A DNA stretch of 64,000 nt, from assembly GCA_041583775.1 (NCBI GenBank), contig JBFHFF010000003.1, positions 28,547 to 92,546 of the forward strand, written 5' to 3'. Below are positions 20,929 to 61,000 of the stretch, in pieces. The notes under the pieces were generated by a model. That model saw only the letters and a list, made by a program, of their open reading frames with translations. It was not told where the DNA came from and did no database searches. How positions within the stretch are numbered: the stretch's first letter is position 1; each line of letters starts with the position of its first letter. This DNA comes from Candidatus Moraniibacteriota bacterium. Its GTDB lineage: Bacteria; Patescibacteriota; Minisyncoccia; Moranbacterales; DUUL01. The position numbers and the translations under genes are program-made.

Positions 20929-21645
20929 ATGAAAATATTTGAAAAATTTTTAGGAGGAAATACTCTTTATTATCCTGGGTGTCTTACAAAATTTGCTTGT
21001 AAGGATCAAATGGAGAAATACAAAAAAATCCTTTCCTTGGAAAAGATTGATTTTATTATGCTGAAAGATAACGAGTTGTGTTGTGGTTCTCCTGTAAAAA
21101 ATGCTGGAGCAAAAAAAGTGTTTGAAGATTTAGCTAGAAAAAACTTAGCTGTCTTTAGTGAACATAGTATTGATCGAATTATCACAAATTGTCCTTCTTG
21201 TGCGCTAGTTTTTAAAAAAGACTATAAGGAAATTTTAGGCAAAGAATGGGGCATTGAGGTTTTGCATATTTCTGAAGTTATTGACAAATCACTTTCTGTG
21301 TTAAAAAAAGTTGAAAATGGGGGAAGGGCGACATTTCATGACCCATGTCATCTTGGAAGAGCTTTGGGGATTTTTGAGCAGCCCAGAAATGTAATTAAGA
21401 AAGCTGGTTATGAGCTTGTGGAAATGGAATATTCGCGAGAAAAAAGTGTTTGTTGTGGAGCTGGTGGTGGTGTCAAAGGCAACAATCTTGAGCTTTCAAA
21501 TAGAATTGGAAAGGATAGAACAAAACAAGCAAAAGAGACTGGTGCTGATGTTTTGGTGACAAATTGTCCAATGTGCTTTAAACAATTGACAGAAAATGGG
21601 CAGGGAATGAAAGTTTTGGAGTTATGTGATTTGTTTGAGCTATAA
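20929..21645 (+). CDS. LutA/GlpC-like (Fe-S) oxidoreductase with two cysteine-rich CCG domains
   Basis: Two CCG-domain signatures (ELCCGSPV...NCPSCA and SVCCGAGGG...NCPMCFKQL). 238 aa, matching the size of LutA/YkgE. Confidence 0.65.
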   Translation: MKIFEKFLGGNTLYYPGCLTKFACKDQMEKYKKILSLEKIDFIMLKDNELCCGSPVKNAGAKKVFEDLARKNLAVFSEHSIDRIITNCPSCALVFKKDYKEILGKEWGIEVLHISEVIDKSLSVLKKVENGGRATFHDPCHLGRALGIFEQPRNVIKKAGYELVEMEYSREKSVCCGAGGGVKGNNLELSNRIGKDRTKQAKETGADVLVTNCPMCFKQLTENGQGMKVLELCDLFEL

Positions 21646-22268: not shown

Positions 22269-23366
22269 CTAGGCTAAGCGCTTTAAAATTTCAATTCCTT
22301 TTTCTAATTCAGAAAAAGGAACCGCAAAAGAGATACGAAAGTAACCCTTTTTTTCAGAGAAAGCTTCACTGGGCACAACAAGAAGTTTATTTTCTAAAAG
22401 ATTTTTGATGAAGTTTTCTTTATTTTCAGGAATTTTCAAGAAAGCATAAAAAGCTCCCTCGGGAACCCTAAATTCGAATTTATTTTTCAAAGAATCGCAC
22501 AAGAAGTCGCGATTTTTTTTATAATATTCTGTAAATTCTGAAATATCTAGTTCAAACTGCTCTGTTAGTGCTCTTTGAGCAAAGGATGGGGCGCAGACAA
22601 AAGTATATTGTTGTAATTTATTAATTGCCTCGATAATTTCAACAGGAGCATGCAAATAACCAACACGCCAGCCTGTAACAGAGTGGCTTTTTGAGAAACC
22701 GTTTAGGGTGATAGTATTATTGTAAACACTTCCAATGCTAAAAAAGTCACCTTCATAATTGAAGCGTTCATAGATTTCGTCGGATAGGATTAGAAGATTT
22801 TTTTCTTCTGCAATTTTTACAACTCCTCGTAGATTTTTTTCTGAATAAACAGCACCAGTTGGGTTATTTGGAGAGTTGATGATAATCATCTTTGTTTTTT
22901 TCGTTATCAACTTCTTCAAATTTTCAAGGTTTAAATCGAAGTTTGGATATGTATCGAGATAGACAATTTTAGCACCTAGATAATTTAAAACTTGTTTATA
23001 TAAAACGAAATATGGATCTGGCAAAATAACCTCATCACCAGGGTTGATTGTTGCGCTGAGTGCAAGAAAAATTCCTCCAGCCGCTCCGGTTGTTATCATA
23101 ACTTCTTCCAAGTTTGCTTTTATTTGGTTTTCCGTTCTGAGTTTTTTAGTAATTTTCTCTCTCAATTCCATAGAGCCTAAAGTCGGAAAGTACGCATTGT
23201 GGTCTTCGTCAATAGCTTTTTTTGCCGACTCTTTTAACGCCTGAGGTGTCTTGAAATGAGGTTGGCCGATAGAGAGATTTGTATATTCTCCTTTATTTTT
23301 AGTAGCTAATTCAAACACTTTACGGATACCAGATTCTTCAATTTGATTTATTCTTTTTGATAGCAT
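22269..23366 (-). CDS. Class I/II PLP-dependent aminotransferase (aspartate/aromatic aminotransferase-like). Start assigned at the internal Met (MLSKRINQIEESGIRK); the track ORF extends to 23423.
   Basis: SGIRKVF N-terminal block, NSPNNPTG, and the PLP lysine in FSKSHSVTGWRVGY. The internal start avoids overlap with tyrA and matches the family N-terminus. Confidence 0.75.
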   Translation of the reverse strand: MLSKRINQIEESGIRKVFELATKNKGEYTNLSIGQPHFKTPQALKESAKKAIDEDHNAYFPTLGSMELREKITKKLRTENQIKANLEEVMITTGAAGGIFLALSATINPGDEVILPDPYFVLYKQVLNYLGAKIVYLDTYPNFDLNLENLKKLITKKTKMIIINSPNNPTGAVYSEKNLRGVVKIAEEKNLLILSDEIYERFNYEGDFFSIGSVYNNTITLNGFSKSHSVTGWRVGYLHAPVEIIEAINKLQQYTFVCAPSFAQRALTEQFELDISEFTEYYKKNRDFLCDSLKNKFEFRVPEGAFYAFLKIPENKENFIKNLLENKLLVVPSEAFSEKKGYFRISFAVPFSELEKGIEILKRLA

Positions 23367-23367
23367 T

Positions 23368-24432
23368 TTATTTTTGATAATTATAACTTTCTTTGAAAAT
23401 AACATCGTAGAGCTTTTCCACAAAGTCTGAGTTTAGTTTTGTGGCCTGTTTTCTTTTTTGAATAATTTCTTTTTCTCGTTTAGTATCAACAATCGTTAGC
23501 CTGTTTCTTTTCTTGTATGCACCTATTTTCTTTGCACAAGTCATTCTTTCTTCTAAGAGAGTAAAAATTTTTTGATCAATTGAATTAATCAACTTTCGGT
23601 TTGAATTAAACTCATTTGTTGTGCTCGCTTCTAAGATTTTCCCTTCAATTAAATCACAAGCTCTTAGGAATTCGACCCTAATTTTCGAAGAATAAGAATT
23701 ATAATTGTTCATATCATAAAAAAGCTGCCAGTCATCATTGTTGGTGTGGGGCAAGATTCTTAATAGATCTGTATATCCAGGGGTAAAAATTTCTTGTTCC
23801 CCGATCCCAGCCTTAGTAAGGGAGCGTCCCAAAAAATGAACAAAACTCAGGGTTTTAGCATTTTGTTTGTCATGTTCTTTGGGTGAGACTATTAAGACTT
23901 TTAGTTTAAGCTTTTCTAGGAAAATTTTCAAAGAAGCTAGTTTCTCTTCAGAAACTCTTATTGGACATAAAACTACTTGTTTATTTTCTAATTCAAAATA
24001 TTTTTTATTAAGATTGAATTTTGTTGTTACCGAACCAAACATAGGATGGGATCCAATAATTTCATTTTCTTTTGGAAGATATTTTTTTAACCATTTGCAC
24101 GGCAACTCTTTAACAGAGCAGGTGTCAATTATGGTTGTTTTTGGTTTTAATAAGGGGGCTATTTTTTTAATCAAATTTTCTGTTTTTGAGATAGGAACTG
24201 ATAGAAGAAGATAGTCACAATCAATAACCTCCTTAAAATCAACCAATTTAATTCCTATTTTATTGGCTATTTCTAAATCCGCATCCCTTTTTCGATAATG
24301 GAAAACCTTTACATCAAAAAAACTACTTAAAACAGTCGCCATTAAAACACCAAATCTACCAAAACCAATTATTCCAATTTCAATCTTATTTTTCATATAA
24401 ATGTCAAACTTAATTTCTTTTAGTTGCAGCAA
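23368..24432 (-). CDS. tyrA: Bifunctional prephenate dehydrogenase / chorismate mutase, with the AroQ-type CM domain at the C-terminus
   Basis: N-terminal Rossmann motif (IGIIGFGRFGVLMA) and the TyrA catalytic region. The C-terminal ~85 aa (RKLINSIDQKIFTLLEERMTCAKKIGAYKKRNRLTIVDTKREKEIIQ) match the chorismate mutase type II helix-bundle pattern. Confidence 0.7.
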   Translation of the reverse strand: MLQLKEIKFDIYMKNKIEIGIIGFGRFGVLMATVLSSFFDVKVFHYRKRDADLEIANKIGIKLVDFKEVIDCDYLLLSVPISKTENLIKKIAPLLKPKTTIIDTCSVKELPCKWLKKYLPKENEIIGSHPMFGSVTTKFNLNKKYFELENKQVVLCPIRVSEEKLASLKIFLEKLKLKVLIVSPKEHDKQNAKTLSFVHFLGRSLTKAGIGEQEIFTPGYTDLLRILPHTNNDDWQLFYDMNNYNSYSSKIRVEFLRACDLIEGKILEASTTNEFNSNRKLINSIDQKIFTLLEERMTCAKKIGAYKKRNRLTIVDTKREKEIIQKRKQATKLNSDFVEKLYDVIFKESYNYQK

Positions 24433-24979
24433 TAAAGCTAGTAAAATTGAATTTTAAATCTTGAACGCCTTCTTCTAAAATGTCTAAATTGTATAGTTTG
24501 GCGCAATTGCTTGAAGCAATTACAGCGGTACTTGGATCTAGTGTTCCGGAACTGAGATCATTTGCAGCGCTTGCCGTGTCTGTGTATTCCTCAAGTTCTG
24601 TTTCGGTCCATTTTCTTTTTAGGTACATTCTGCACTGTTTGAGTGCTTGTGGATGTGAGGCAATTTTATTTATAGCGGAAGTATTTGCCCCGGGTTTTAC
24701 TAAAAGACAGTGTTTGATGTCAATTTCAAAGATATTTTCAATATCAAAGTTGTGTTTTGACATAGCAACAACAGCTTCGTGAACAATTCCCCCATTTGAG
24801 TTTTCAATTGGAAAGATTGCCTTATCGATTTTTTCAGCTTCTAATTCAGTTAATGTTTTTTCAACGCTAAGTAAATAGAGTAATTCAAAATCATTAATAT
24901 TGTTCTCCAAGCAGTAATGTTTCGCCGCCTCTTCTGAAAAACTGCCTTCATTACCAGATACTCCTATTTTTATAGTCAT
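24410..24979 (-). CDS. pheA: Prephenate dehydratase (PDT domain only, no ACT regulatory domain)
   Basis: PDT blocks PIENSNGG, SHPQALKQC, TASAAN, AVIASS and AKLYNLDIL, plus an NFTSF relative of the TRF motif. 189 aa. Overlaps tyrA by 23 nt. Confidence 0.7.
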   Translation of the reverse strand: MTIKIGVSGNEGSFSEEAAKHYCLENNINDFELLYLLSVEKTLTELEAEKIDKAIFPIENSNGGIVHEAVVAMSKHNFDIENIFEIDIKHCLLVKPGANTSAINKIASHPQALKQCRMYLKRKWTETELEEYTDTASAANDLSSGTLDPSTAVIASSNCAKLYNLDILEEGVQDLKFNFTSFIAATKRN

Positions 24980-25128
24980 CCTGTTATTTTTAATTTTTAA
25001 AACAATATAAGTTTAGCCAAATTTTTTCAAAAGAACAAGGAATGTATCGAATAGTTCCTTCTTTTGAATTGCAAAAAGAATTACGACAAGCTATTATTGA
25101 GGTGTATTATAAGAAATGACTCTTTGAT

Positions 25129-25851
25129 ATGCCAAAAATTATATTTGATATTGAGACTGTTGGGGAAAACTGGAAGACAATGGATAAAAAAACGCAAGAA
25201 ATAATTAAACAGAGGGTTATTAAAGTTGTTGGTGATGTAAAAAATAAAAAGGCCATAAAAGAAGCTTTGCTTGCTGAAATTGAAACATTTAGCCATTCTC
25301 CATTGACGGGACAAATTATTTCGATTGGAATGCTAGATATAGACACCAAAAAAGGCGCTGTTTATTTTCAGTCACCTGATGTAGAAATTGAAGATTTCGA
25401 GGAAGATGGGATTAAATACAAATTGATGACAGAAAAAGAAATTATTGAAGGTTTCTGGCAGATTGCAAAGCATGCAGATGAGTTCATTAGTTTTAATGGA
25501 AGATCCTTTGATATTCCCCATATTCTAATCAGGGGAGCTGTTCATAGTATTCGTCCATCAAAAGATTTGATGGCGAGCAGATATATAAATATGCAAAAAA
25601 CTGGGTCAAAACACATTGATCTTTTAGACCAGCTTACTTTTTATGGTAGTATCTCAAACAATGAAGGTGATTCGCATATGTGGACACGCGCTTTTGGAAT
25701 TAAAGATGTAAAGGAAAAAGATATTGATAGTGAAGATGTTGTGAAAATGTTTGCTGATAAAAAATATTTGGAAATTGCTCAATATAATGCTAGTAATTTA
25801 CATTTAACCAGAGAGTTATTTGAACACTGGGAAAAGTATTTAAGGTTCTAA
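25129..25851 (+). CDS. RNase H-like 3'-5' exonuclease (YprB / PolB-exonuclease-domain-like)
   Basis: Exo I-like FDIET, Exo II-like FNGRSFDIPHI, and a later acidic HIDLLD block. 240 aa. Confidence 0.55.
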   Translation: MPKIIFDIETVGENWKTMDKKTQEIIKQRVIKVVGDVKNKKAIKEALLAEIETFSHSPLTGQIISIGMLDIDTKKGAVYFQSPDVEIEDFEEDGIKYKLMTEKEIIEGFWQIAKHADEFISFNGRSFDIPHILIRGAVHSIRPSKDLMASRYINMQKTGSKHIDLLDQLTFYGSISNNEGDSHMWTRAFGIKDVKEKDIDSEDVVKMFADKKYLEIAQYNASNLHLTRELFEHWEKYLRF

Positions 25852-25861
25852 ATATAGAAAA

Positions 25862-26188
25862 ATGTTGGTTTTTAATTTTTTCTTAAAGATTTTTATTGTA
25901 ATTTTAGTGGGGACTATTTTTCTTCTAATTGTTGGGAAAATTCCTCCAAGTGGTGCAATTGGCTTTCGACCAATTGACGATGGATGTTATGGGATCGGAT
26001 TTGAAAATAAAGAGGTTTATGATAAATTTCCAAAAGGAAAAATTAGAATAGAATCTTTTAATCTTGAATATTATGTTCCTAATGAATCAGAAAAAAAATC
26101 TCCAGATGGATTTTGCTTAGGAAAAAATTTTTGGGATAAGAAAAAATGGGAAGAAGAAAAGAAACTTCAAATTAATCAAGTAAAATAG
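25862..26188 (+). CDS. Small membrane-anchored protein, paralog A (N-terminal TM, conserved Cys pair)
   Basis: One N-terminal TM helix. The shared core with 26267..26563 is (I/L)GFRP(I/V)(D/Q)D(G/E)C(Y/F)GI...NLEY(Y/D)VP....GFCLG(K/Q). Confidence 0.45.
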   Translation: MLVFNFFLKIFIVILVGTIFLLIVGKIPPSGAIGFRPIDDGCYGIGFENKEVYDKFPKGKIRIESFNLEYYVPNESEKKSPDGFCLGKNFWDKKKWEEEKKLQINQVK

Positions 26189-26266: not shown

Positions 26267-26563
26267 ATGTTTAAATTAATTGGATTGATTTTAAAAATAG
26301 CAATTATTATTTTTGTTTTAGGTTTTGTTCATAGATATATTTCAGAGCGATGGGATTTGGGGTCACTTGGCTTTAGACCTGTTCAAGATGAGTGTTTTGG
26401 AATTATAATAGAAGCTGATGATGTTTATAAATCCTATGATTCACTTCCTTTTTTACCAAAAGGACAGCTAAAAACGAAATATTTTAATTTAGAATATGAT
26501 GTCCCGAGAAGTAAGGCCGAGGCTATGAATGGTTTTTGTTTGGGGCAAGATAAGAAAAAATAA
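26267..26563 (+). CDS. Small membrane-anchored protein, paralog B
   Basis: Same architecture and conserved motifs as 25862..26188 (LGFRPVQDECFGI...NLEYDVP...GFCLGQDKKK). This is a tandem duplicate. Confidence 0.45.
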   Translation: MFKLIGLILKIAIIIFVLGFVHRYISERWDLGSLGFRPVQDECFGIIIEADDVYKSYDSLPFLPKGQLKTKYFNLEYDVPRSKAEAMNGFCLGQDKKK

Positions 26564-26572
26564 TTAAAAACT

Positions 26573-27832
26573 ATGACAGAATTTTTTGAAGATAGTGCTA
26601 GAAACGCTATTCAAAAGACTATTGCAGATTCCCGAAGGAAAAGAAATGTTCTTTTTGATGAAATGGGAATTGCAGAAGAGGATTTTAAGTCAGAGGTGAC
26701 AGAAATTCGTAAAAAAATATTTTCAAATTTTGAGAAAAACCTAAATGAGGCAAAAGTAAACTTTAAGAAAAAAGGTTTTATTTTGCACGAAGCAAAAGAA
26801 GTGAAGGATGTCGGGGTGATTTTGAAGGATGTTTTAAGTGACTCAAAGATAATTGCAAGAACCAAAACAAATACAGGAAGAGAGATTGGGTTGGATGGTT
26901 TTCTGAGTGAATTTGATAGCTTCGAAACTGACCTAGGTGATTATATTGTTGAACTATTCAATGAAGAGGACCAACACTATGTTCTTCCTGCAATTCATGT
27001 CAATGCTAAAAAAATAGCTCAAAAAATAAAAGAAGTTTTCAATGAAGACATTGAGGCCGATCCAACAAAATTAACACATTTTTTATGTTCAAAAATTAGA
27101 GAAAAAATCTTGAAGGCTGACACTGGGATAACTGGTGCAAATTTTATTACAAAAAAGGGTCAAGTTGTTTTGCTTGAGAATGAAGGAAATATTTCATTGG
27201 TTTCAAGACTTCCTAAAAAACACATCGTTATTGTTGGTATTGATAAGTTGGTTGAAACTGTTGAAGATGCAACAAAGTTATGTAGGGCTGCAGCTATGTT
27301 TGGAACTGGTCAAGATATCACGCAGTATATTTCTATTATTTCAGGACCCTCAAAAACCGCTGACATTGAATCGCAACTCGTTGTAGGTGCGCAGGGTGCA
27401 AAAGAGGTGCATATTATTCTTATTGACAATATGCGTAGAAATATGCTCAAAGAAGGACTTGGTGATATGTTGAGATGTATAAATTGTGGCTCTTGTATTA
27501 ATTTTTGTCCAGTATATCATCAAAAAGGGAATAAATTCGGTGGAGGGAAATACATTGGGGCAAGAGGGATTATTAACACTGCTTTTCGTGATTCTTCTTT
27601 GTTATCAAAAGAGAAGGGTAGTTTTGATTGTATGCTTTGCGGAGCATGCTATGTAAACTGTCCAATGAAAATTGAATTGCCAAGAATGATTAGAGATGTC
27701 AGGCAAAAACAAAATAAAAAAGGAGAGCAAACAAAAGAAAACAGGCAAATGATTGAGAATATCGAGAAAAATGGCAATCCATTTGGTGAAATTTCGGAAA
27801 AGGAGGTTCCAGACAAGCTTTATTGTTGCTAG
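26573..27832 (+). CDS. LutB-like iron-sulfur protein (LUD/DUF162 domain + 2x[4Fe-4S] ferredoxin motifs)
   Basis: C-terminal CINCGSCINFCPVY and CMLCGACYVNCPMK ferredoxin-type cluster motifs. The preceding ~300 aa match the LutB/YkgF arrangement (LUD domain). Confidence 0.55.
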   Translation: MTEFFEDSARNAIQKTIADSRRKRNVLFDEMGIAEEDFKSEVTEIRKKIFSNFEKNLNEAKVNFKKKGFILHEAKEVKDVGVILKDVLSDSKIIARTKTNTGREIGLDGFLSEFDSFETDLGDYIVELFNEEDQHYVLPAIHVNAKKIAQKIKEVFNEDIEADPTKLTHFLCSKIREKILKADTGITGANFITKKGQVVLLENEGNISLVSRLPKKHIVIVGIDKLVETVEDATKLCRAAAMFGTGQDITQYISIISGPSKTADIESQLVVGAQGAKEVHIILIDNMRRNMLKEGLGDMLRCINCGSCINFCPVYHQKGNKFGGGKYIGARGIINTAFRDSSLLSKEKGSFDCMLCGACYVNCPMKIELPRMIRDVRQKQNKKGEQTKENRQMIENIEKNGNPFGEISEKEVPDKLYCC

Positions 27833-28102: not shown

Positions 28103-28798
28103 ATGTATTACGATAAATTTATCGAATTTGCGATTATACGAGGTGGAGTACCGGATGCAACGGTTGTGCTTATTTTAATGTTGCCAATTGTTGTTACGAT
28201 AATAGCGTTTTTTAGACAAGTGATTGGAATTAAGGCATTTGGTATTTACACCCCTGCCCTTATAACATTTGCATTTGCTGCGATTGGCTCAGAAGCAGAA
28301 AGTGTTTGGAAGGGTGGTGTCTACGGAGTCACCATTTTCATTGCTGTTATTTTTGTGGGGACAATGGTGAGATATGTTTTGAAGGGATTTCGCCTTTTAT
28401 ATCTTCCAAGAGTGGCACTGCTTATTACTATTGTTTCGTTATCAACTCTAGTTCTTTTAATAATTGGGGGAATGTCTCAAAGGACTGGGTTAGCAAGCGT
28501 TTCCATTTTTCCGATTTTGATTATGATTGCACTTGTTGAAAAATTTGTAGCAACTCAAATCGAAAAAGGTGCTAGAGCTGCAATCATTCTTTCATTTGAA
28601 ACATTGTTAATTTCATTAGTTTGTTATGCTGTTTTGACATGGGAGTCTTTGATTAGATTTGTATCGGTACATTCCTGGGTCGTGCTTTTTACAATTATAA
28701 TAAATATCTTTCTTGGAAAATGGACGGGACTTCGTTTAAGTGAAATGTTTAGATTTAAAGATGTTATCAAAAATGCTGAACACAATGATAAGAACTAA
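28103..28798 (+). CDS. Polytopic (about 7 TM) membrane protein of the type associated with RimK-like ligase/protease systems (7TM_transglut-like)
   Basis: 231 aa with about 6-7 hydrophobic helices. Its 3' end overlaps the ATP-grasp/protease gene. This is the canonical 7TM partner position in the three-component ATP-grasp/retropepsin systems. Confidence 0.5.
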   Translation: MYYDKFIEFAIIRGGVPDATVVLILMLPIVVTIIAFFRQVIGIKAFGIYTPALITFAFAAIGSEAESVWKGGVYGVTIFIAVIFVGTMVRYVLKGFRLLYLPRVALLITIVSLSTLVLLIIGGMSQRTGLASVSIFPILIMIALVEKFVATQIEKGARAAIILSFETLLISLVCYAVLTWESLIRFVSVHSWVVLFTIIINIFLGKWTGLRLSEMFRFKDVIKNAEHNDKN

Positions 28799-30176
28799 GG
28801 GAATTCTGGGAATGAATGCCCGGAACCTAAAATATATAAGACCATACAATCTTAAGGGTCCAAAGCGTTTAGCAGATGATAAACTTCGTTGCAAGAACGT
28901 TTTTAAAAAAGGTGGAATTCCAGTGCCAGAGTTGATTGCTAAAATTAAAACAAAAGAAGAGCTTGATAAATTTGATTTCTCTTCTTTGCCAAACAGTTTC
29001 GTTTTGAAACCGAACTTTGGTTTTGGTGGGGAGGGAATTTTGGTTGTTTATGGAAAGAAAAAAAAGAAAGATAATGTTTGGGTGAAAGCAAATAGAGATC
29101 CGGTAACGGAGGATGACTTAAGAACTCACATTTGGAATATTTTAGATGGTTCTTTTTCTCGAACTAACACTGCTGATATTGCATTTTTCGAAGAAAGAAT
29201 TCAACTTTTAAAACTTTTTAAGCCGTATGCATTTAAGGGAATTCCTGATATTCGCGTAATTGTTTTCAATCGCGTTCCAGTTATGGCAATGCTCAGACTT
29301 CCAACAGAAGCTTCTGGTGGAACTTCAAACGTTCATCAAGGAGGAATCGCTGTTGGAATTGATATGGCTACAGGTGTAACAACAACAGCCATTCAATATA
29401 ACCGTACAGTTGAATATGCCCCAGGAACAAGATTGCTTTTGAGCGGAATCAGAATTCCAAATTGGAAGGAGATATTAAGGTTAGCAATCAAATCACAGGA
29501 TGTTTCAAAATTGGGCTATTTAGGTGCTGATATTGCAATTGATAGAATTAAGGGACCAGTTTTTATGGAAATCAACGCCCGTCCAGGTCTTGCAATTCAA
29601 AATGCCAACCAAGATGGACTTCTTTCCCGTCTTCAGAGAGTTGAGGGCTTGAAAGTGAAAACTGTTTCACAGGGCGCCGCTTTAGCACAGAATCTTTTTG
29701 GAGGAGAAATCGAAGAAGAGATTGAGGAGCTCTCGGGAAAGAAAATTATTGGCTTGATTGAGAAAGTGAAACTGAAAAGTACTGACGGAAGGATTATCGA
29801 AATAGAAGCAAAGATAGATACAGGGGCAGATTCTTCTTCAATTGACACTGAGTTGGCAAGACAACTAGGTTTTGGCTCGACAATTGATGAGTTTCATAAG
29901 ATAGATATTTCTGGATATGATATTTTGCCCGAAAAAGAGAAAAAAATAAAAGAAGATTTTATGAAAAAATTTGGAGAACAAGTTCCAAATTTAGAAAATA
30001 TTGCAGTTGTTTTTTCTTCCTCAGGAAAATCAATTCGTCCTGTTGTTAAATGTTTATTCTCCATGGATGATGAGGTAGTAATATCCAAGATGAATATTAC
30101 AGATAGAAGTAAATTGAAATACCAAATGATTGTTGGAAGAAAGGATTTGAAGAAATTTTTAATTGAAATCAGCTAA
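28785..30176 (+). CDS. Alpha-L-glutamate-ligase-like ATP-grasp enzyme fused to a C-terminal retropepsin-like aspartic protease domain (DUF785/Zn_protease type). The track ORF starts at 28740; an internal start at MIRTKGILGMNARN is likely.
   Basis: The N-terminus (GILGMNARNLKYIRPYN...DDKL...K) matches the rimK-related ligase family start. ATP-grasp core (GFGGEGI, ...EINARPG). C-terminal ~140 aa carry a retropepsin-like aspartyl-protease DTGA motif (GRIIEIEAKIDTGADSSSID). Confidence 0.7.
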   Translation: MIRTKGILGMNARNLKYIRPYNLKGPKRLADDKLRCKNVFKKGGIPVPELIAKIKTKEELDKFDFSSLPNSFVLKPNFGFGGEGILVVYGKKKKKDNVWVKANRDPVTEDDLRTHIWNILDGSFSRTNTADIAFFEERIQLLKLFKPYAFKGIPDIRVIVFNRVPVMAMLRLPTEASGGTSNVHQGGIAVGIDMATGVTTTAIQYNRTVEYAPGTRLLLSGIRIPNWKEILRLAIKSQDVSKLGYLGADIAIDRIKGPVFMEINARPGLAIQNANQDGLLSRLQRVEGLKVKTVSQGAALAQNLFGGEIEEEIEELSGKKIIGLIEKVKLKSTDGRIIEIEAKIDTGADSSSIDTELARQLGFGSTIDEFHKIDISGYDILPEKEKKIKEDFMKKFGEQVPNLENIAVVFSSSGKSIRPVVKCLFSMDDEVVISKMNITDRSKLKYQMIVGRKDLKKFLIEIS

Positions 30177-30192
30177 TCCTTGAAAGAAAAAA

Positions 30193-31845
30193 ATGTTTAA
30201 AGAAAATCAATTTCTGAGAAAAATTAGTGAAAGAGAGGGGAATAATGGGAAAGTAGTTGAATATTCCGAGAAAGCATATGATGATTTGGATGAAAATGTT
30301 AAAAATAGATTTTTAGAAAAAAAACAAAAAGAACTTGGTTTCAGCTATGTTAACGGTGGAGAAGAGACCTCTATTTTGATTTCTGGCTCACACGCCGCAG
30401 ATTTAGCAAAAACTAGTTTAAACATAGATAAAGATGAGATAGAATTCCTAAACAAGGAAGAGGAAAGAGGAGAGAGATATCGAATGGATGATGATGAAAA
30501 GTTGATGATAGGGAAACATTATATTAACGCTTCAGTGAGGGAGAAAAAAATAGGAGAATACAAGGCAGATTCTGGTGTTAGTGCAATGGGTATCGAATTG
30601 CAAGACGATTTAATATTAAAAGATTCAAAGAGGGCTCCAAACTTATTGTTATATGAACTGCCACAAGTTTTTTCGGAACCAAACAAGGTTGATTCAAAAA
30701 GTAGGCCAATGGCAGTGGTTGATTTGTCTGTGTATAATAAATTTGGAATTCATAAGTTAGAACAATTTATAACAAGAAAAGGAGTGAGTTCCATAACCTC
30801 AGAAGAAGTAGCGCTTGTTAGGAGAGGAGACTATTCTAAAATTTCCGAAGATGAAATTGACTTAGATAAGAAAGGGGCCCTATTGGAGTGTGAAAAAATT
30901 GTTCAGGATTCAAAAGGGGACGAAGGAAAATATAGAAAAATCATAGCTTCTTTGGGAATTTTAAAAATTCACAGGAAATATTATGAGAAACAAGAAGAAT
31001 TATTATATGGAAATCCAGATGCTAAATTCCCAATAAATCTGGATATACACACAGCGTTTGATTCTCTAAAACAAGAAGAAGGCTTTGACGCTATCATAGG
31101 GTCACGAATGGGAAGTAGCGTTAGTGACCCAGAAGTTGAAATGCTATTCTCTTTAATTCTGAAAAAACATGGATTTAAAGTAAATCTTTCAAGTTTTAAC
31201 AATTTCCCCATAAAAGCTGGTGAAAAAGAAAAGGATGGGCTCAGGAGACTCTTGGAATCGACAAAAGCAATTTTGAGTCAGGAACAAGTGCAATTGCTTG
31301 ATGGAACTGAAGAAATGAAACAAAAGGAAGATGTCCTGGCACATTTAGATATTTTATTTGATAGAAGATTGGAAAAAATGGGAGATTCTAGAAAGCTTTT
31401 GTTAAGATTTTTAGACTGGAAAGATAAGCAAAACTTAGTTAATGAAAATAGTACAGATGATGAAATTAGGGATATTGCAAAGAAAGTTTTTCTAGAGGAA
31501 GCTACTGAATTTTCCTTGGAAAATCTTGTTCTTTTATTAAAACAAAACCTAGTTAATTTATTTTTAAGTGGCAAAACTCATGATGATCGCTTTAGAGGTG
31601 GTTTAATGGGCCTTTCATCTTTGCAGGATAAATTTGATGCCAAGGATAAATATGAAAAAGCTAGGGGTAGTAAAATTAATCCAGAGATTTTTCAAATAGA
31701 AATTATTGCAAGTATCATGAAGAATAAAAGCAAAAGAAAGGATTTTGAAGATGCTATAGAAGAATTTTTTAGTTTGGTGCAACAGAAAGATTTTGAGCCC
31801 AAAGAAGTGTTGAAAAAAATAATAAATCAACAGAATTTTAAATGA
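30193..31845 (+). CDS. Hypothetical 550-aa acidic/charged protein with no recognisable domain, embedded in the ATP-grasp operon
   Basis: Open frame with an ATGA stop/start overlap to the next ATP-grasp gene. Highly Glu/Lys/Asp-rich. No motifs recognised. Confidence 0.45.
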   Translation: MFKENQFLRKISEREGNNGKVVEYSEKAYDDLDENVKNRFLEKKQKELGFSYVNGGEETSILISGSHAADLAKTSLNIDKDEIEFLNKEEERGERYRMDDDEKLMIGKHYINASVREKKIGEYKADSGVSAMGIELQDDLILKDSKRAPNLLLYELPQVFSEPNKVDSKSRPMAVVDLSVYNKFGIHKLEQFITRKGVSSITSEEVALVRRGDYSKISEDEIDLDKKGALLECEKIVQDSKGDEGKYRKIIASLGILKIHRKYYEKQEELLYGNPDAKFPINLDIHTAFDSLKQEEGFDAIIGSRMGSSVSDPEVEMLFSLILKKHGFKVNLSSFNNFPIKAGEKEKDGLRRLLESTKAILSQEQVQLLDGTEEMKQKEDVLAHLDILFDRRLEKMGDSRKLLLRFLDWKDKQNLVNENSTDDEIRDIAKKVFLEEATEFSLENLVLLLKQNLVNLFLSGKTHDDRFRGGLMGLSSLQDKFDAKDKYEKARGSKINPEIFQIEIIASIMKNKSKRKDFEDAIEEFFSLVQQKDFEPKEVLKKIINQQNFK

Positions 31846-33617
31846 AAATTTCAGTAATAACCAAAAAAGAAACTTGGCAAACAAGGGAGTTGCAGAAAGA
31901 GTCTCGTAAAATGGGAATAGAGTTGGAGCTGAGAGATTTGGAGAATCTAAACCAGGGGATTGATGAGCTTGGGGATGTTGTGTTTTGGAGAGCAAATTCA
32001 ATGAATCTGTTCGATGGCGGAGCAGCTACAATTTCTCTTATCAAAAAGAGTGGTAGAATTATTGTGAGTCAAGGTATTTCAGAATTTCCATTTATTAGGA
32101 ACAAGCTTTTTCAGCAGAAATTTATAGAGGGTTTCAGTGGTATTAACACTATTGAAACATTTACTTTTGCAAACAAAGAAGATCTTGCCAGCTCTTTAGA
32201 AGAAGGAATTTTAAATTTTCCTTTTGTTCAAAAACCAGCAGTAGGCAGAAGAGGCGAGGGTGTTAAACTAATAGATTCTTGTGAATCTATGGAAAAACAA
32301 AGAGGTGAATATAGTAAAGTTGTTTATCAAAATTTTATAAAAAACAAAGGTGATTTTAGAGTGTTGGTATTGGGAGGAAAACCTCTCGGCGCAATAAAAA
32401 GGGTTGCAAGAAAAGGAAGCTTTTTAAATAATTTTTCTAAGGGAGGGACTTGCACCAACATTGATGATAAGGAAGTTAGAGAAATTTTGTTTGGAATTGC
32501 GATTAAAGTTGCTTCATATTTTAAATTAGCTTTTTGTGGTGTAGATATTATTTTTGATGAAAATAAAAAAAAGTATTTCTTCTTGGAAGTAAATACTCTC
32601 CCTCAATGGGAGGGTTTTCAGGGTGCTACAAATATTAATGTTTCTTTTGAGTTGCTGAATTTTTTTAAAGTTATGCACGAGAGGGGGAGAAGGGGTAGTA
32701 GAGAATTGGTATCCGAATATTATGAGGATAATTTAGACAAGCTTAGTTTTGAGAAGTCTTTTCATTATATTTCACGTTTGTTTCTTTGGGAAAACAGAAA
32801 AGAACTGTCAGTAAAATTAGAGTGTTTTAAGCAGGGTTTTATTGGTGAAACAGAAGATGATATTTTGGGAAATTTTAGAAAAACTTTTTCTGAAGTTGAA
32901 AAATATCAAGAAAGAGTGAAAAATGATATTTCAGCCAGAGAAAAATATATCAAAAAGTATCCTTTGCTGGGAGTTTATAATAGAATATTGTTTCAAGCGC
33001 TTATATCTAAAACAGTCTATAAAAAGGATGTGGCTGATATAGTTTCAAAAGTTTTGGACAGGGAACATGCTCTTAAAATGAGAGATGAACTCATGGGAGA
33101 TGAGGAGGCACTAAAATCTCTTTCTACGCATGCAATTAATTTTCTTTATTTTTCACAAGAGATTTTTGGTAAATTTTTTGAAGTCGATGTAAAAAAGTTA
33201 CACAGAATTTCAATTAGCGATTTTGGGAAGAGCGATGAGAGTTTGCTGCTTAAAATTTATTTCTTAACACACTGTATTATTGGTGAGTCGAGATTTTATT
33301 CTCAAGCAGTTAATGATGAAAAGGGTATTTATACAGAGATGATAAAAGCACTTGAAGAAATTATTAAAGAAAATTATTTTAGAGTTAGTTTGGACAATAA
33401 AATGGAGTTTCTTGTTTGTTCAAGAATGTGTGGCTTTAAGTCCTCAGTTGAGAAAATTTTGATTGCAGAGGCAGAAAGCTCTATGTCAGAAATTGGAAAC
33501 TATATTGTTGATATTTTAAATGCAAAAGGGGGGGATAAAAGAAAAAAAGATTTTTGGAACTCAGAACATAGAAATGTTTTATATTTAATGGCTACAAGTA
33601 AACTAAAAAAATGGTAA
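31842..33617 (+). CDS. RimK-family ATP-grasp ligase with a ~300-aa C-terminal all-helical extension of unknown function
   Basis: N-terminal ~290 aa are RimK-like (MKISVITKKETWQTRELQKESRKMGIELELRD...GDFRVLVLGGKPLGAIKRVARKGSFLNNFSKGGTCTNI...FFLEVNTLPQWEGF). The C-terminal 300 aa have no recognisable motif. Confidence 0.65.
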   Translation: MKISVITKKETWQTRELQKESRKMGIELELRDLENLNQGIDELGDVVFWRANSMNLFDGGAATISLIKKSGRIIVSQGISEFPFIRNKLFQQKFIEGFSGINTIETFTFANKEDLASSLEEGILNFPFVQKPAVGRRGEGVKLIDSCESMEKQRGEYSKVVYQNFIKNKGDFRVLVLGGKPLGAIKRVARKGSFLNNFSKGGTCTNIDDKEVREILFGIAIKVASYFKLAFCGVDIIFDENKKKYFFLEVNTLPQWEGFQGATNINVSFELLNFFKVMHERGRRGSRELVSEYYEDNLDKLSFEKSFHYISRLFLWENRKELSVKLECFKQGFIGETEDDILGNFRKTFSEVEKYQERVKNDISAREKYIKKYPLLGVYNRILFQALISKTVYKKDVADIVSKVLDREHALKMRDELMGDEEALKSLSTHAINFLYFSQEIFGKFFEVDVKKLHRISISDFGKSDESLLLKIYFLTHCIIGESRFYSQAVNDEKGIYTEMIKALEEIIKENYFRVSLDNKMEFLVCSRMCGFKSSVEKILIAEAESSMSEIGNYIVDILNAKGGDKRKKDFWNSEHRNVLYLMATSKLKKW

Positions 33618-34501
33618 AAAACTTCCTAATACTCTCGAGTGAGGGTGTGAAATTTGACTTTAGAAACAAAAGATTATCAGAAGAGATAGAAAAGAAAGGG
33701 TCCAGATTCGATATTGTTTTTGTTCAGGATCTTAGTATTTCTTGTGATAAAGTCGTTTTCAGAGATGAAGAAATAGATTTTTATAAATATGATTATATTA
33801 TCTCGGTAGGAACTCCTGATGCAAATCTTTACATAATTGATTTAGCAACTAAAAAAAATCCAAAAATTAAAGCCTGGCCAAATGTCCAGAACCATGGAAT
33901 GGTAGATAAATTTACAGAAGGAACGACTCTTGAGGCTATTGGAATCCCAATTCCGAAGACCACCCTCCTCGCTTTTTTGGAAGATGATTATATAAATAAA
34001 GAGGCTGAAATTGTCGGAGGTTTTCCTTGTGTGGCCAAAAAAGTTACAGGTGCTTCTGGAGATTATGTTGAGTTGGTTAATTCTTCTGATGAAATAAAAA
34101 AGTTTATTGAAAAACTTTCGGTTCCAAGCATAATTGGCAAAAGAAATATAATTTTACAAGAATATATAGAAGAGTCAAAGGGGACAGACTTTAGAGTTTA
34201 CTGTGTTGGAGATAAAGTTCTTGGTGCAATAAAAAGAACCGCCAAAGACGGCGGATTTAAAGCAAATGTCTCTTTGGGTGGAGATGCCGAAAAGGCTGAA
34301 ATTTCGAAAGAAATGAAGGAATATGCCCAAAAGATCATGCAAGCTAGTGGGCTTATGTTTGCTGGTATAGATTTTATCAAAAGCAATAGAGGTTATTTAG
34401 TTTTGGAGATAAATATATCAGCAAACTTTCAAGGATTTGAAACTGCAACCGGAGTTAATGTCGCAGGAGAAATTATTGAGAAATTCTTGGCATATGAATA
34501 G
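33611..34501 (+). CDS. RimK-family ATP-grasp ligase, paralog 3
   Basis: 296 aa, RimK-sized. ATP-grasp blocks GTDFRVYCVGDKVLGAIKRTAKDGGFKANVSLGG and GYLVLEINISANFQGFE. 7-nt overlap with the upstream gene. Confidence 0.75.
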   Translation: MVKNFLILSSEGVKFDFRNKRLSEEIEKKGSRFDIVFVQDLSISCDKVVFRDEEIDFYKYDYIISVGTPDANLYIIDLATKKNPKIKAWPNVQNHGMVDKFTEGTTLEAIGIPIPKTTLLAFLEDDYINKEAEIVGGFPCVAKKVTGASGDYVELVNSSDEIKKFIEKLSVPSIIGKRNIILQEYIEESKGTDFRVYCVGDKVLGAIKRTAKDGGFKANVSLGGDAEKAEISKEMKEYAQKIMQASGLMFAGIDFIKSNRGYLVLEINISANFQGFETATGVNVAGEIIEKFLAYE

Positions 34502-34529
34502 GCGTAATTATTATTCTTAAATAACACAC

Positions 34530-35423
34530 ATGAAGCATTTTTTAATTATATTCAAGGATAAAGTGAAAAGCGGATATAGAATTGATAGAGTTGTCACAGA
34601 GATAAAAAACGCTGGGCACGATGTTGATTTGGTTTGTAGTGTTGGAATGAAAATTACGGCTGCAGGCTTTTTGGTAGACAATAAAATTTTGAATTTGGCT
34701 AAGTACGATATCGTTTTTTCGATTGGCAATGGTGAACTACAGCATCAGCTTGCTACAGTTATTTCCTGTTATACCAAATCAGTTTTCTGGCCTGATAAAG
34801 AAGCTCTTTTTTATGATGATAAATTTAATGAAGCAGTTTTTATGGAGTCAATTGGTGTGCCTAAGCCGAAAACAATATTATTGACAAGTACGAAAAGTAA
34901 AGATATTGATGATTTGATTAAAGAGGTCGAGGGGTACCCATGCATTATTAAAAAAGCTATGGGCTCAGGAGGAGAATTTGTCGAGCTAGCGAATTCTAGC
35001 TCTGATGTATTGGATTTTTTAGATAAAGTGCCACATCCAAGTATAAGTGGAAAAAGAAACATTATTTTGCAAGAATACATAAAAGAATCAAAAGGCACTG
35101 ATTTTAGGGTTTTTTGTGTGGGAGAAAAAGTTCTCGGTACAATTAAAAGGACATCCAGAAACGGTGGATTTAAGGCAAATGTTTCTTTAGGAGGAAAAGC
35201 AGAGAAAGTTGAAATTTCTAAAGAGATGAAGGCATATGCTAAAAAGATTATGAAAGAGAGTAAACTTCTGATTGCTGGGATTGATTTCATAAAAAGCAAT
35301 AGAGGTTATTTAGTTTTGGAGATAAATATATCACCCGGTATTGAAGGTTTTGAAAAGGCAACCGGAGTTAATGTAGCTAAAAAGATTGTTTTAGGACTTC
35401 TCGAAAGAACACAACAAAAATAG
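34530..35423 (+). CDS. RimK-family ATP-grasp ligase, paralog 4 (recent tandem duplicate of 33611..34501)
   Basis: 297 aa. The C-terminal half is largely identical to paralog 3 (GTDFRVFCVGEKVLGTIKRTSRNGGFKANVSLGGKAEKVEISKEMKAYAKKIM...IDFIKSNRGYLVLEINIS). Confidence 0.75.
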   Translation: MKHFLIIFKDKVKSGYRIDRVVTEIKNAGHDVDLVCSVGMKITAAGFLVDNKILNLAKYDIVFSIGNGELQHQLATVISCYTKSVFWPDKEALFYDDKFNEAVFMESIGVPKPKTILLTSTKSKDIDDLIKEVEGYPCIIKKAMGSGGEFVELANSSSDVLDFLDKVPHPSISGKRNIILQEYIKESKGTDFRVFCVGEKVLGTIKRTSRNGGFKANVSLGGKAEKVEISKEMKAYAKKIMKESKLLIAGIDFIKSNRGYLVLEINISPGIEGFEKATGVNVAKKIVLGLLERTQQK

Positions 35424-58072: not shown

Positions 58073-61000
58073 ATGAAAAAAGGAAGAATTGTTCCACAAT
58101 ATAATTTTGCTAAAATCGAGAAAAAATGGCAAAAATCTTGGCAAGAGAAAAAAGTTTATGAGGTTGATATAAATAACGCCAAAAAACCTTTTTATAATTT
58201 GATGATGTTTCCGTATCCTTCAGCAGAAGGGTTGCATGTTGGAGGAGTTTATACTTATACGGGAGTTGATGCTTTTGGAAGATTTAAAAGAATGCAAGGG
58301 TATGATGTTTTTGAGCCAATGGGGTTAGATGGTTTTGGAATTCATAGTGAAAATTATGCAATGAAAATTGGTGAACACATTGATGATGTTTCAAAGCGAA
58401 CAGAGAAAAACTTTTATCGACAACTTTCTTCAATTGGAAATATGTTTGATTGGTCAAGAACAGTTGAGACCTATAAACCAGAGTACTACCGTTGGACGCA
58501 ATGGTTGTTTTTGCAACTTTTTAAAAAAGGATTGGCATATCAAAAGAAAGCCAAAGTGAATTGGTGTCCTTCTTGTAAAACTGTTCTTTCTGATGAACAA
58601 GTGATTCAAGGGCAATGTGAGCGATGTGACAGTTTTGTAGAAAAAAGAGAATTAAAACAATGGTTTTTTCGTATCACAAAATATGCAGATCGACTTTTGA
58701 AAAATTTAGATTGGATTGATTGGCCAGAAGATGTAAAAACTAATCAAAGAAATTGGATTGGTAAAAGCGAGGGGGCAAATATCAAGTTTCAAGTTGAAGT
58801 TGCTGGTGAGAACAAGGGTGAATTGGAAGTTTTTACAACTCGTCCAGATACGCTTTTCGGTGCGACTTATATGGTTTTAGCTCCAGAACACGAATTAGTT
58901 CAAAGTGCAAAAGAGGTTATTGAAAATTGGAGTGAGGTGGATAAATATGTCAAAAAAGCAATTAGCAAATCGGAGCAGGAAAGAAAAAATGATGAGAAAA
59001 CTAAAACAGGGGTTGAGTTGAAAGGAATCTCGGCTATCAACCCTGCAAGTGGGGAAAAAATCCCTGTTTGGGTTGCTGACTATGTCTTGGCAGGATATGG
59101 AACAGGAGCAATTATGGCTGTTCCAGCACATGATGCTCGTGATTTTGAATTTGCAAAGAAATTTGGTATTGAAGTTAAATGTGTTGTTGAACCTAAAGAT
59201 TCCAAAACAGGACTTATTTTTAGACTAGGTACTCCAAAAGAGGATCCACAAGAAAAATTAGAAAAAATTTATAAAGGAGAGGAATGTTATGAGGGACTTG
59301 GTGTTTCAATGAATTCAGGATTTTTAAATGGAAAATCAACAACCGAAGCGAAAGCCGAAATGTTGGAATGGTTGGAGAAAAAAAATGTTGGTAAAAAATC
59401 AATTGACTTTAAACTTCGAGATTGGTGTGTTTCTCGTCAGAGATATTGGGGACCTCCAATTCCGATTGTGTGGTGCAAAGAATGTGCGAAGAATCAAAAC
59501 AAACGAAAAGTTTTGATGATTCACGGATTTGAAGGCGTTGGAGACGGAAATTGGTTTCCTCACCTAAAAAAAGAGCTTGAAGAAAAAGGTTGTGAGGTCT
59601 TCACTCCAACATTAGAAACTAATACCAAGCCAGATTTAGAACAATGGATGAAACAATTAAAGCCATATTTGGACAAGTTGGACGAAAATAGTGTTATTAT
59701 TGGTCACAGCCTTGGTTCAAAGGCAATTTTGCATTTATTGGAAGGAAACAAACAAAAAGTTGATAAAATTTTCTTAGTCGCTTCCGCAATTGGCAATCTA
59801 AAGAGAGATTGGAAATGGTTGGCAGATCGATGGAAAAATTCAGATGTAGAGTCTTTGCGCAAATTCTGGGAAGCAGAATTGGATTGGAGCAAGATCAATC
59901 CAAAAGTGAATGAATCTTTTGCAATCGTTTCAAAAGATGATCTATATGTTGATGTTAGTAATTATGAAGCGATGGAGCTTGATGGTTTGAATGTTGAAAT
60001 TTGGGATGGACATAGACACTTTCAACAAACAGAAAATGCTGCATTAAAAGATTTTATTTTCGAAAACCTATTTAGTAATAGCGAAGCGGTTGCAGTTCCT
60101 GTTCCAGACAATCAGTTGCCAGTAAAATTGCCGCCAATGAAAGATTTTCTCCCTGAAGGAACCGGGAAAGGTCCTTTGGCAAAGAATGCTGAGTTTGTGA
60201 AAACAACTTGCCCTGTTTGCGGGGCTGACGCAGAAAGAGAAACTGATGTTTCGGATCCTTTTGTGGATTCTTCTTGGTATTTTTTTAGATATCCGTCAAC
60301 AGAGTTTGATGATGTTGCTTTTGATAAAGAAAGGACTAAGAAATGGCTTCCCGTAGACAGCTATATTGGTGGCAAAGAACACACAGTTTTGCATCTTTTG
60401 TATTCTAGATTTATAACTATGGTGCTTAAGGATTCGGGATATATTGATTTTGATGAGCCATATAAAAAATTCTTTGGGCACGGATTGATTACTAAAGAAG
60501 GTGCTAAAATGTCAAAATCAAAAGGAAATGTTGTAAATCCAGATGTTATGATTGAAAAATATGGGGCTGATACAACAAGAATGTATTTGAGATTTTTAGG
60601 AGACTTTTCTCAGGGAGGGGATTGGCGAGATTCTGGAATAGAAGGTATGAATAGATTTACGAAAAGACTTTGGTCACTCTTTTTTGAACTAGAAGGAAAT
60701 GGAAAAGGGGTTGATGATTTTTCAATGATAGATAAAACAATTAAAGTTGTTGGCGAGGACTTGGAAAAACTTTCATTTAATACTGCCGTTGCTCGTTTGA
60801 TGGAGTTTGTGAATTGGGTAAAAGAGAATAAAAATCAATTCAATGAAAAACAAGTTAAAAAAATCAAAGAAACGATGGCACTTATATTTGCCCCGATGAT
60901 GCCACATATAGCAGAGGAATTTTGGCAAGAAATTGGAGGGGAAAGCTTTGTTTGTGAGCAAAGATGGCCAAACTATGATAAGGACAAAATCATTGATAAT

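Follow-up and report, generated by a model that had tools for sequence, protein, structure and literature searches.

The window analysed here is a 64,000-nucleotide (nt) stretch of DNA from a Candidatus Moraniibacteriota bacterium (assembly GCA_041583775.1, contig JBFHFF010000003.1, positions 28,547 to 92,546 of the forward strand), a member of the Patescibacteria or candidate phyla radiation (CPR). It contains a compact operon of three minus-strand genes, encoding a prephenate/arogenate dehydratase-domain protein without an ACT domain (gene 1), a bifunctional TyrA dehydrogenase carrying an AroQ-type chorismate mutase at its C-terminus (gene 2), and a class-I aminotransferase (gene 3). An initial annotation, made from the sequence alone, had proposed that these genes together convert chorismate to Phe and Tyr, which is plausible, the domain architecture of all three proteins being as it claimed. 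The dehydrogenase core of gene 2 more closely resembles plant TyrA than the other TyrA types compared with it, which bears on the order of the steps, as set out below. The features of the operon are as follows.

24410..24979, minus strand: gene 1, prephenate/arogenate dehydratase-domain protein without ACT, 189 amino acids (aa) (Pfam PDT; nearest solved relative Chlorobium tepidum PDT 2qmx)
24434..24442, minus strand: codons of T180-S181-F182 in gene 1, equivalent to the 'TRF' catalytic motif but with Ser in place of Arg (aligned with E. coli PheA)
23368..24396, minus strand: gene 2, bifunctional TyrA dehydrogenase with C-terminal AroQ, 342 aa (Pfam PDH_N and CM_2; 84 fused homologues)
23626..24396, minus strand: TyrA catalytic core of gene 2, residues 1-257, Rossmann and helical substrate domains (sequence and fold match to soybean PDH1)
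23734..23736, minus strand: codon of Asp221 in gene 2, aligned to soybean PDH1 Asn222, the prephenate/arogenate specificity switch (gap-free pocket alignment)
23371..23613, minus strand: AroQ-type chorismate mutase domain of gene 2, residues 262-342 (CM_2; active-site alignment; modelled helices)
22269..23366, minus strand: gene 3, class-I (aspartate aminotransferase or aromatic aminotransferase-like) pyridoxal phosphate (PLP) aminotransferase, 365 aa (Pfam Aminotran_1_2)
22689..22691, minus strand: codon of Lys226 in gene 3, the predicted PLP-binding lysine in FSKSH (direct sequence reading)
25106..25135, minus strand: promoter-like site TTGGCA-18-TATAAT (11/12 consensus matches; a consensus match only, not functional proof)

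Together the three genes (24979-24410, 24396-23368 and 23366-22269) span exactly the limits given in the initial annotation. The open reading frames (ORFs) listed mechanically for the window (24410-24979, 23368-24432 and 22269-23423) open at an upstream TTG, while the likely starts are the ATG codons at 24396 and 23366. Identical proteins in public gene calls begin at these codons too, and the products are 189, 342 and 365 aa long. With these realistic starts the genes abut without overlap, the stop codon of gene 1 being followed by a 13-nt spacer and the ATG of gene 2, and the stop codon of gene 2 by a single nucleotide and the ATG of gene 3. Thus, of the earlier description as 'abutting or overlapping minus-strand genes', the strand and the abutment stand, but the overlap does not. 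The promoter-like site is situated ~127 nt upstream of gene 1, inside a divergent intergenic region, and a convergent gene terminates 11 nt past gene 3.

The last ~85 residues of the dehydrogenase had been said to look like an AroQ chorismate mutase, in an order opposite to that of E. coli TyrA and PheA, and both observations are borne out. The CM_2 profile (PF01817) matches the last 76 residues of gene 2 (E 4e-20, profile positions 2-80 of 80) with 72.2 bits against a cutoff of 27 bits, so that the C-terminal segment does match chorismate mutase profiles, the point on which the initial annotation had made the fusion depend. In an alignment with the mutase domains of E. coli PheA and TyrA (taken from NC_000913), all seven catalytic residues are present, with R267, R284, K295, D304, E308, S337 and Q341 of gene 2 corresponding to E. 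coli R11, R28, K39, D48, E52, S84 and Q88, and the protein terminates one residue beyond the last catalytic Gln (Q341). Across the 84 fused homologues, three of the seven residues are invariant and the others 82-99% conserved, and the linker is nearly constant in length, comprising 24 residues in 75 of the 84. An AlphaFold2 monomer model of gene 2, built from a 115-sequence alignment (mean predicted local distance difference test score, pLDDT, 96.4; predicted template modelling score, pTM, 0.88), shows the tail in the three-helix AroQ topology (residues 262-297, 305-318 and 323-341, with pLDDT 97-99 in the monomer). As far as sequence can show, the C-terminal AroQ domain rearranges chorismate to prephenate. 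AroQ mutases are obligate dimers, and fusion to TyrA probably supplies a dimer scaffold and fixes the stoichiometry.

The remainder of gene 2 is a TyrA catalytic core, in which PDH_N matches residues 39-179 (E 2.9e-21, 76 bits against a 26.5-bit cutoff). In the Rossmann motif GFGRFG (GxGxxG), G11 and G16 are invariant and G13 is conserved in at least 90% of sequences, and S94, H117, H175, H187 and R191 are invariant in 115 relatives. The catalytic Ser and the His of HPMFG (S94 and H117) align with S101 and H124 of soybean PDH1, which was the best match in a phmmer search against solved structures (E 1e-18, followed by the next TyrA at 1e-12). A Foldseek comparison of the gene 2 model with soybean PDH1 gave a target-normalised template modelling (TM) score of 0.89-0.90 at a root-mean-square deviation (rmsd) of 2.3 Å, against TM-scores of 0.55-0.73 and rmsd values of 6-10 Å for the TyrA structures of Aquifex, Synechocystis, Bacillus, Streptococcus and Haemophilus. 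Judged by this sequence and fold match, the core is of the plant-like (clade I) type. The nearest non-CPR relatives are delta-proteobacterial (Desulfobacterales and Bdellovibrionota), and the delta-proteobacteria are members of the plant-like TyrA clade (PMC5681985).

In this clade, which includes the enzymes of plants, spirochaetes, and alpha- and delta-proteobacteria, an acidic residue at position 222 is associated with arogenate-only activity; Asn or Gln at this position marks prephenate-specific and Asp or Glu arogenate-specific enzymes, and exchange of Asp for Asn adds prephenate activity, while exchange of Gln for Glu adds arogenate activity in an archaeal enzyme (PMC5681985). Gene 2 is acidic at this position, like the clade-I enzymes (structures of soybean PDH1: 5t95, 5t9e and 5whx). 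Soybean PDH1 is itself a prephenate user with Asn222, whereas gene 2 has Asp221 at that position, a residue invariant in 115/115 family members. The neighbouring Thr218 of gene 2 aligns with soybean Met219, and Thr is also residue 219 in the M219T/N222D PDH1 mutant crystal 5t95. The plant-like TyrA core and the invariant Asp in the specificity position make arogenate a more likely substrate of the gene 2 dehydrogenase than prephenate, to the extent that the published residue rule applies. The earlier designation 'prephenate dehydrogenase' is therefore correct as to the family, but as to the substrate, the plant-like core and Asp221 point to arogenate instead. Where the second Rossmann strand ends, members of the family differ, some having an Asp, typical of NAD+ enzymes, and others a His followed by basic residues. 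Gene 2 carries H33-Y-R-K-R in place of the Asp, suggesting NADP+, which is probably its cofactor.

Gene 1 consists almost entirely of the dehydratase domain (PDT, PF00800, E 1.8e-45, residues 5-187 of 189; profile positions 1-178 of 181; 155 bits against a 25.2-bit cutoff). No Pfam match to an ACT domain was found in gene 1, and the protein stops 7 residues past T180-S181-F182, in agreement with the earlier description of a PDT-only dehydratase lacking ACT. The 'TRF' motif is described as critical for catalysis (PMC13217925). Gene 1 lacks the complete motif, retaining the Thr and Phe, with the Arg substituted by Ser. Like the canonical prephenate dehydratases with ACT (C. tepidum 2qmx and four other solved chains, all of 276-313 aa; all five found carry ACT), it has the full catalytic domain, with the motifs GxxGS.S, P.ENS, SHPQ and N.T.F, including the Thr of 'TRF'. 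Unlike these enzymes, it is without ACT, and the Arg position is occupied by Ser here and by Thr or Ser throughout the class of short dehydratases to which it belongs. The absence of ACT implies the absence of an allosteric Phe site, but the statement that there is no Phe feedback control goes too far: loss of ACT removes allosteric Phe binding and leaves competitive product inhibition possible.

Dehydratases encoded near related TyrA genes fall into two groups, one of 272-289 aa with ACT and N-x-T-R-F, and one of 185-205 aa without ACT, both of which retain the remaining motifs of the catalytic domain. The Arg of 'TRF' is retained in 15/16 of the ACT-bearing relatives. In the short group it is replaced in 30/30 non-redundant members (by Thr in 26/30 and by Ser in 4/30), with the C-terminus following 5-12 residues further on, and three invariant acidic residues (E17, D141 and D174) are specific to this class. 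In an exhaustive search of 1.84 billion representatives, 66 relatives of gene 1 were found below E 1e-30, many of them 185-210 aa in length. By their sequences, the short ACT-less dehydratases form a coherent separate class, and replacement of the Arg could reflect lost contacts to the ACT domain or a drift toward arogenate. The short PDT domain also occurs in the fusions TyrA-PDT, CM-PDT, PDT-CM and PDT-TyrA-CM, where CM denotes the chorismate mutase domain, and the fact that the three domains are fused in several combinations supports a functional link between them. Proteins with such fusions (P0366, P0408, P0463, P0369, P0384 and P0110) join the three domains repeatedly and in varying orders.

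The missing ACT domain, the substituted Arg, and the lack of upstream pathway genes in the sequence examined (the window and 10 kb beyond each end, ~84 kb in total) might also be taken as signs of decay, with gene 1 as a truncated pheA and the trio as a remnant of a lost pathway with no present function. This is scarcely credible. Every reading frame is intact and the catalytic motifs are all retained, the proteins of the trio are 50-76% identical between divergent lineages, and the short dehydratases are conserved as a class, with invariant residues of their own across 30 non-redundant loci and with the 66 representatives mentioned above. Only 13 nt follow the stop codon of gene 1 before gene 2 begins, leaving no room for an ACT remnant. 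The possibility raised in the initial annotation that the PDT-like frame is a pseudogene fragment is likewise countered by the ~30 non-redundant relatives of 185-205 aa with a common end point, and the pseudogene reading was rejected on the strength of the intact frames, the conserved short class, the identity between lineages and the short spacer.

Gene 3 belongs to the class-I aminotransferases (Aminotran_1_2, E 3e-66, 224 bits) and contains, in addition to the predicted PLP-binding Lys226, the motifs NPTG, DEIY and GYFRIS. Its nearest solved relative is the Pyrococcus horikoshii aromatic aminotransferase 1dju (E 1e-71), and it also matches the Arabidopsis prephenate aminotransferase 5wmh (E 7e-53) and a Thermus aspartate aminotransferase (T. 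thermophilus 1b5p). The match to these class-I (1-beta or archaeal-type) aspartate, aromatic and prephenate aminotransferases extends over the full length and includes the PLP lysine and the cofactor motifs. The domain search proposed in the initial annotation thus returned all of the expected families (PDT, PDH_N, CM_2 and Aminotran_1_2), with E-values that chance could not produce. NCBIfam families agree with these for the trio, with none of the three proteins reaching an equivalog cutoff.

The reading to which we give slightly more credence than doubt is that the trio is a functional operon for the post-chorismate branch of Phe and Tyr biosynthesis, in which Tyr is formed via arogenate and the aminotransferase acts in mid-pathway. 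In this route, the C-terminal AroQ domain of gene 2 would convert chorismate into prephenate, which would be transaminated to arogenate by the gene 3 aminotransferase; the TyrA core of gene 2 would then catalyze the oxidative decarboxylation of arogenate to tyrosine, a preference suggested by the published residue rule, and gene 1 would form phenylalanine from arogenate. Alternatively, gene 1 may form phenylpyruvate from prephenate, with gene 3 completing the synthesis of phenylalanine. If the dehydrogenase is an arogenate dehydrogenase, the aminotransferase acts between the mutase and the dehydrogenase, and not last. No allosteric domain is present on any of the three proteins, and control, if any, would be exerted by transcription or by product competition at the active sites.

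Several observations weigh against the arogenate route, most of them in favour of the classical keto-acid route implied by the initial annotation, in which the mutase forms prephenate, TyrA converts it to 4-hydroxyphenylpyruvate, the dehydratase converts it to phenylpyruvate, and the aminotransferase completes both amino acids. The family names and NCBIfam matches are those of prephenate dehydrogenase and prephenate dehydratase. Gene 3, the last in the operon, is closest to the archaeal aromatic enzyme 1dju, which fits a final transamination of phenylpyruvate or 4-hydroxyphenylpyruvate. In E. coli, fusion of the mutase to a dehydrogenase links two steps that follow each other, whereas in the arogenate route it would join steps 1 and 3, and the CM-PDT and PDT-CM fusions within the dehydratase class of gene 1 suggest prephenate as the dehydratase substrate. 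Prephenate use in the 1-beta aspartate aminotransferases is reportedly conferred by Lys/Arg/Gln in an N-terminal loop, and by Thr84 and Lys169 in the plant enzyme, and gene 3 may lack the N-terminal-loop residues of the prephenate-competent enzymes, possibly having Glu and Ile in their place. Nor was a chorismate source found within the ~84 kb, and the residue-222 rule itself was tried on few enzymes, with partial effects of the mutations in the microbial ones (PMC5681985). What speaks against the keto-acid route is the invariant Asp221, at a position where Asn or Gln is prephenate-specific and Asp or Glu arogenate-specific (PMC5681985), together with the plant-like fold of the core, the type on which this rule was established. 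The keto-acid route is accordingly regarded as a serious but somewhat doubtful possibility, and the arogenate route is retained as the preferred one.

The arrangement of the operon is conserved. Among 19 non-redundant loci with a recognisable fusion, the PDT gene lies directly upstream in 15 and the aminotransferase gene directly downstream in 16. Homologues of the trio carry the source labels Patescibacteria, Falkowbacteria, Moranbacteria and Parcubacteria, and the closest species-representative genome is that of Patescibacteria group bacterium UBA2772, with a TyrA-CM protein 64% identical to gene 2. The closest relatives, with proteins 50-76% identical, have the bare trio, preceded in two of them by a DAHP synthase gene, while more distant CPR relatives have TyrA-CM inside complete shikimate clusters (Moraniibacteriota, Peri- and Peregrinibacteria, one Saccharibacteria metagenome-assembled genome, Gracilibacteria, and two groundwater Patescibacteria). 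The groundwater pair has an archaeal-type entry into the pathway, with a DeoC-like aldolase and a PF01959 dehydroquinate synthase II, accompanied by aspartate kinase and aspartate-semialdehyde dehydrogenase. These groundwater clusters adjoin PDT and TyrA-CM (loci L006/L012, 1-8900, and L013, 200-9050), and the same archaeal-type pair of entry genes was seen in the Desulfobacterales loci L054, L065 and L074. The TyrA-CM fusion is found almost only in Patescibacteria-labelled genomes; relatives without the fusion are present in further CPR groups, in Desulfobacterales, Bdellovibrionota and Sericytochromatia, and in a few archaea. Recurring as it does in many lineages of Patescibacteria, the trio is neither unique nor a pseudogene remnant. 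The earlier remark that a terminal aromatic branch retained in a reduced genome is notable thus holds for its presence, but not for an isolated retention. The public names of these proteins ('prephenate dehydrogenase/arogenate dehydrogenase family protein' and 'hypothetical protein') omit the mutase.

AroQ-like mutases and an aminotransferase are also known in non-proteinogenic pathways, and the trio might make a product of this kind, for example by a PapB/PapC-like route to p-aminophenylalanine, or by supplying 4-hydroxyphenylpyruvate or phenylpyruvate for a secondary metabolite. The TyrA family includes members that catalyze a reaction outside tyrosine synthesis (PMC1173090). Such a role is nevertheless very unlikely: no gene for aminodeoxychorismate synthase, tailoring or secondary metabolism lies nearby, the conserved trio includes a dehydratase gene, relatives hold the same genes inside plain shikimate clusters, and the trio is kept across many streamlined genomes.

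The initial annotation had suggested a search of the rest of the genome for shikimate-pathway genes or another chorismate source. The search was run over the ~84 kb only, where Pfam (40 ORFs in the 64-kb window, and the 10 kb beyond each end) revealed no shikimate-pathway gene and tblastn with eight shikimate-pathway proteins from relatives gave no match, while relatives with full clusters do exist. Chorismate synthase was confirmed on the contigs of three relatives (275724, 149443 and 80372 bp) among the best 120 of 8000 candidates, which were saturated at 65-68% identity, making this search uninformative for the present genome and for the 584-, 530- and 306-kb contigs. In one relative (L001, 8137-9174), the gene directly upstream of the trio encodes DAHP synthase, on a 530-kb Joint Genome Institute (JGI) contig. 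Among 5.8 billion proteins, the next-best match to this DAHP synthase shares only 59% identity with it and is from Desulfobacterota. The present genome therefore has no close orthologue, and the gene looks like an isolated case of horizontal acquisition.

The reactions of the dehydratase and of the dehydrogenase are decarboxylations and cannot be reversed, so that the module runs only toward Phe and Tyr and needs a supply of chorismate or prephenate. It is conceivable, though unlikely, that the cell has no shikimate pathway of its own, and that the unregulated module finishes Phe and Tyr from chorismate, prephenate or arogenate obtained from a host. If true, this would be a case of 'last-mile' amino-acid synthesis in an episymbiont, with the mutase fused to an arogenate-type dehydrogenase.

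Among the closest known counterparts of the trio are the E. coli T-protein (AroQ-TyrA) and P-protein (AroQ-PheA-ACT), which are built from the same families (CM_2, TyrA and PDT), likewise have the mutase fused to a branch enzyme, and, in the case of the P-protein, have mutase active-site residues identical to those of gene 2. By contrast, the E. coli mutase domains are N-terminal and that of gene 2 is C-terminal; the trio has a single mutase copy for both branches, a plant-like TyrA core with Asp at the specificity position, a dehydratase that differs from the P-protein in lacking ACT and in having TSF for 'TRF', and an aminotransferase gene within the operon. The H. influenzae TyrA, a solved enzyme of the N-terminal-mutase type, deviates from the gene 2 model by an rmsd of ~10 Å.

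A mutase on the C-terminal side of TyrA, opposite to the arrangement in enteric bacteria, is found in the TyrA-AroQ-PheA-ACT protein of Archaeoglobus fulgidus (PMC1173090). Going by its description, this four-domain protein runs on into PheA and ACT, whereas gene 2 ends with the mutase. The Ignicoccus hospitalis protein Iho_0892, annotated as 'prephenate dehydrogenase/chorismate mutase' (PMC3149612), may be comparable, and further archaeal TyrA-mutase cases have been reported (PMC11237513). Some archaeal TyrA enzymes of clade II, almost all of which have a non-acidic residue 222 and prefer prephenate, are bifunctional with a mutase domain (PMC5681985). Because these archaeal fusions are on clade II enzymes, the CPR fusion, on another TyrA lineage, is suggested to have arisen independently of them. 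The clade-I TyrA enzymes, by contrast with gene 2, include no described member with a chorismate mutase domain. In the literature, no description was found of a plant-like, Asp222-type TyrA fused to a mutase, or of a conserved CPR operon in which such a fusion is partnered by an aminotransferase and by a dehydratase that lacks ACT and is altered in 'TRF', and nothing on this cluster turned up in the literature searched for CPR, Patescibacteria or Parcubacteria together with shikimate, chorismate or prephenate. The trio is a lineage-wide variant of ordinary metabolism, and not a new kind of system.

The usual description of CPR bacteria (Patescibacteria) is that they cannot make amino acids. 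An end-module for Phe and Tyr that is conserved and apparently lacks regulation qualifies this picture, especially as some relatives hold full shikimate clusters alongside it, and provides a concrete target for defining what CPR cells must get from their hosts. For enzymology, the trio and its relatives offer natural permutations of three domains (TyrA-CM, TyrA-PDT, CM-PDT, PDT-CM and PDT-TyrA-CM), a bacterial plant-like TyrA bearing a mutase, and a large class of dehydratases in which both the ACT domain and the Arg of 'TRF', a motif supposed to be essential, are missing.

The rest of the window (~33% G+C) contains bacterial housekeeping genes, including those for RF1, FtsEX, MurJ, a class-A penicillin-binding protein, GroEL, LepA, iPGM, DXS and LeuRS. 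A recent horizontal transfer of the trio into the genome was considered, and base composition shows no sign of it (G+C 0.330 for the trio and 0.338 for the window). The trio is flanked, on the opposite strand, by genes for a LutA-like CCG-domain protein (20929-21645, plus strand) and a LutB-like protein with LUD and 4Fe-4S domains (26573-27832, plus strand), with no LutC-like gene seen between the two. The window also contains two adjacent small paralogous genes (25862-26188 and 26267-26563, plus strand), whose products (108 and 98 aa) both carry a hydrophobic segment at the N-terminus, share the motifs GFRP..D.C.G, FNLEY.VP and DGFCLG, and have no match in Pfam.

The LeuRS gene (58073-61186, plus strand, 1037 aa) contains a serine-hydrolase or alpha-beta-hydrolase insert at residues ~480-630 (PF06821, E 6.6e-16; PF00561, E 1e-6), which sits between the editing domain and the remaining catalytic core. 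A Cas12a (Cpf1) gene starts right after DXS at ~63280 on the plus strand and extends past the end of the window (L091, 12077-18028), where it is followed by Cas4, Cas1 and Cas2. A row of plus-strand ATP-grasp genes at 28103-35423 encodes a 7TM_transglut membrane protein, a sugar-transfer-associated ATP-grasp protein, a 550-aa protein without a Pfam match and three RimK-like ligases, and resembles a peptide or amino-acid ligation module.

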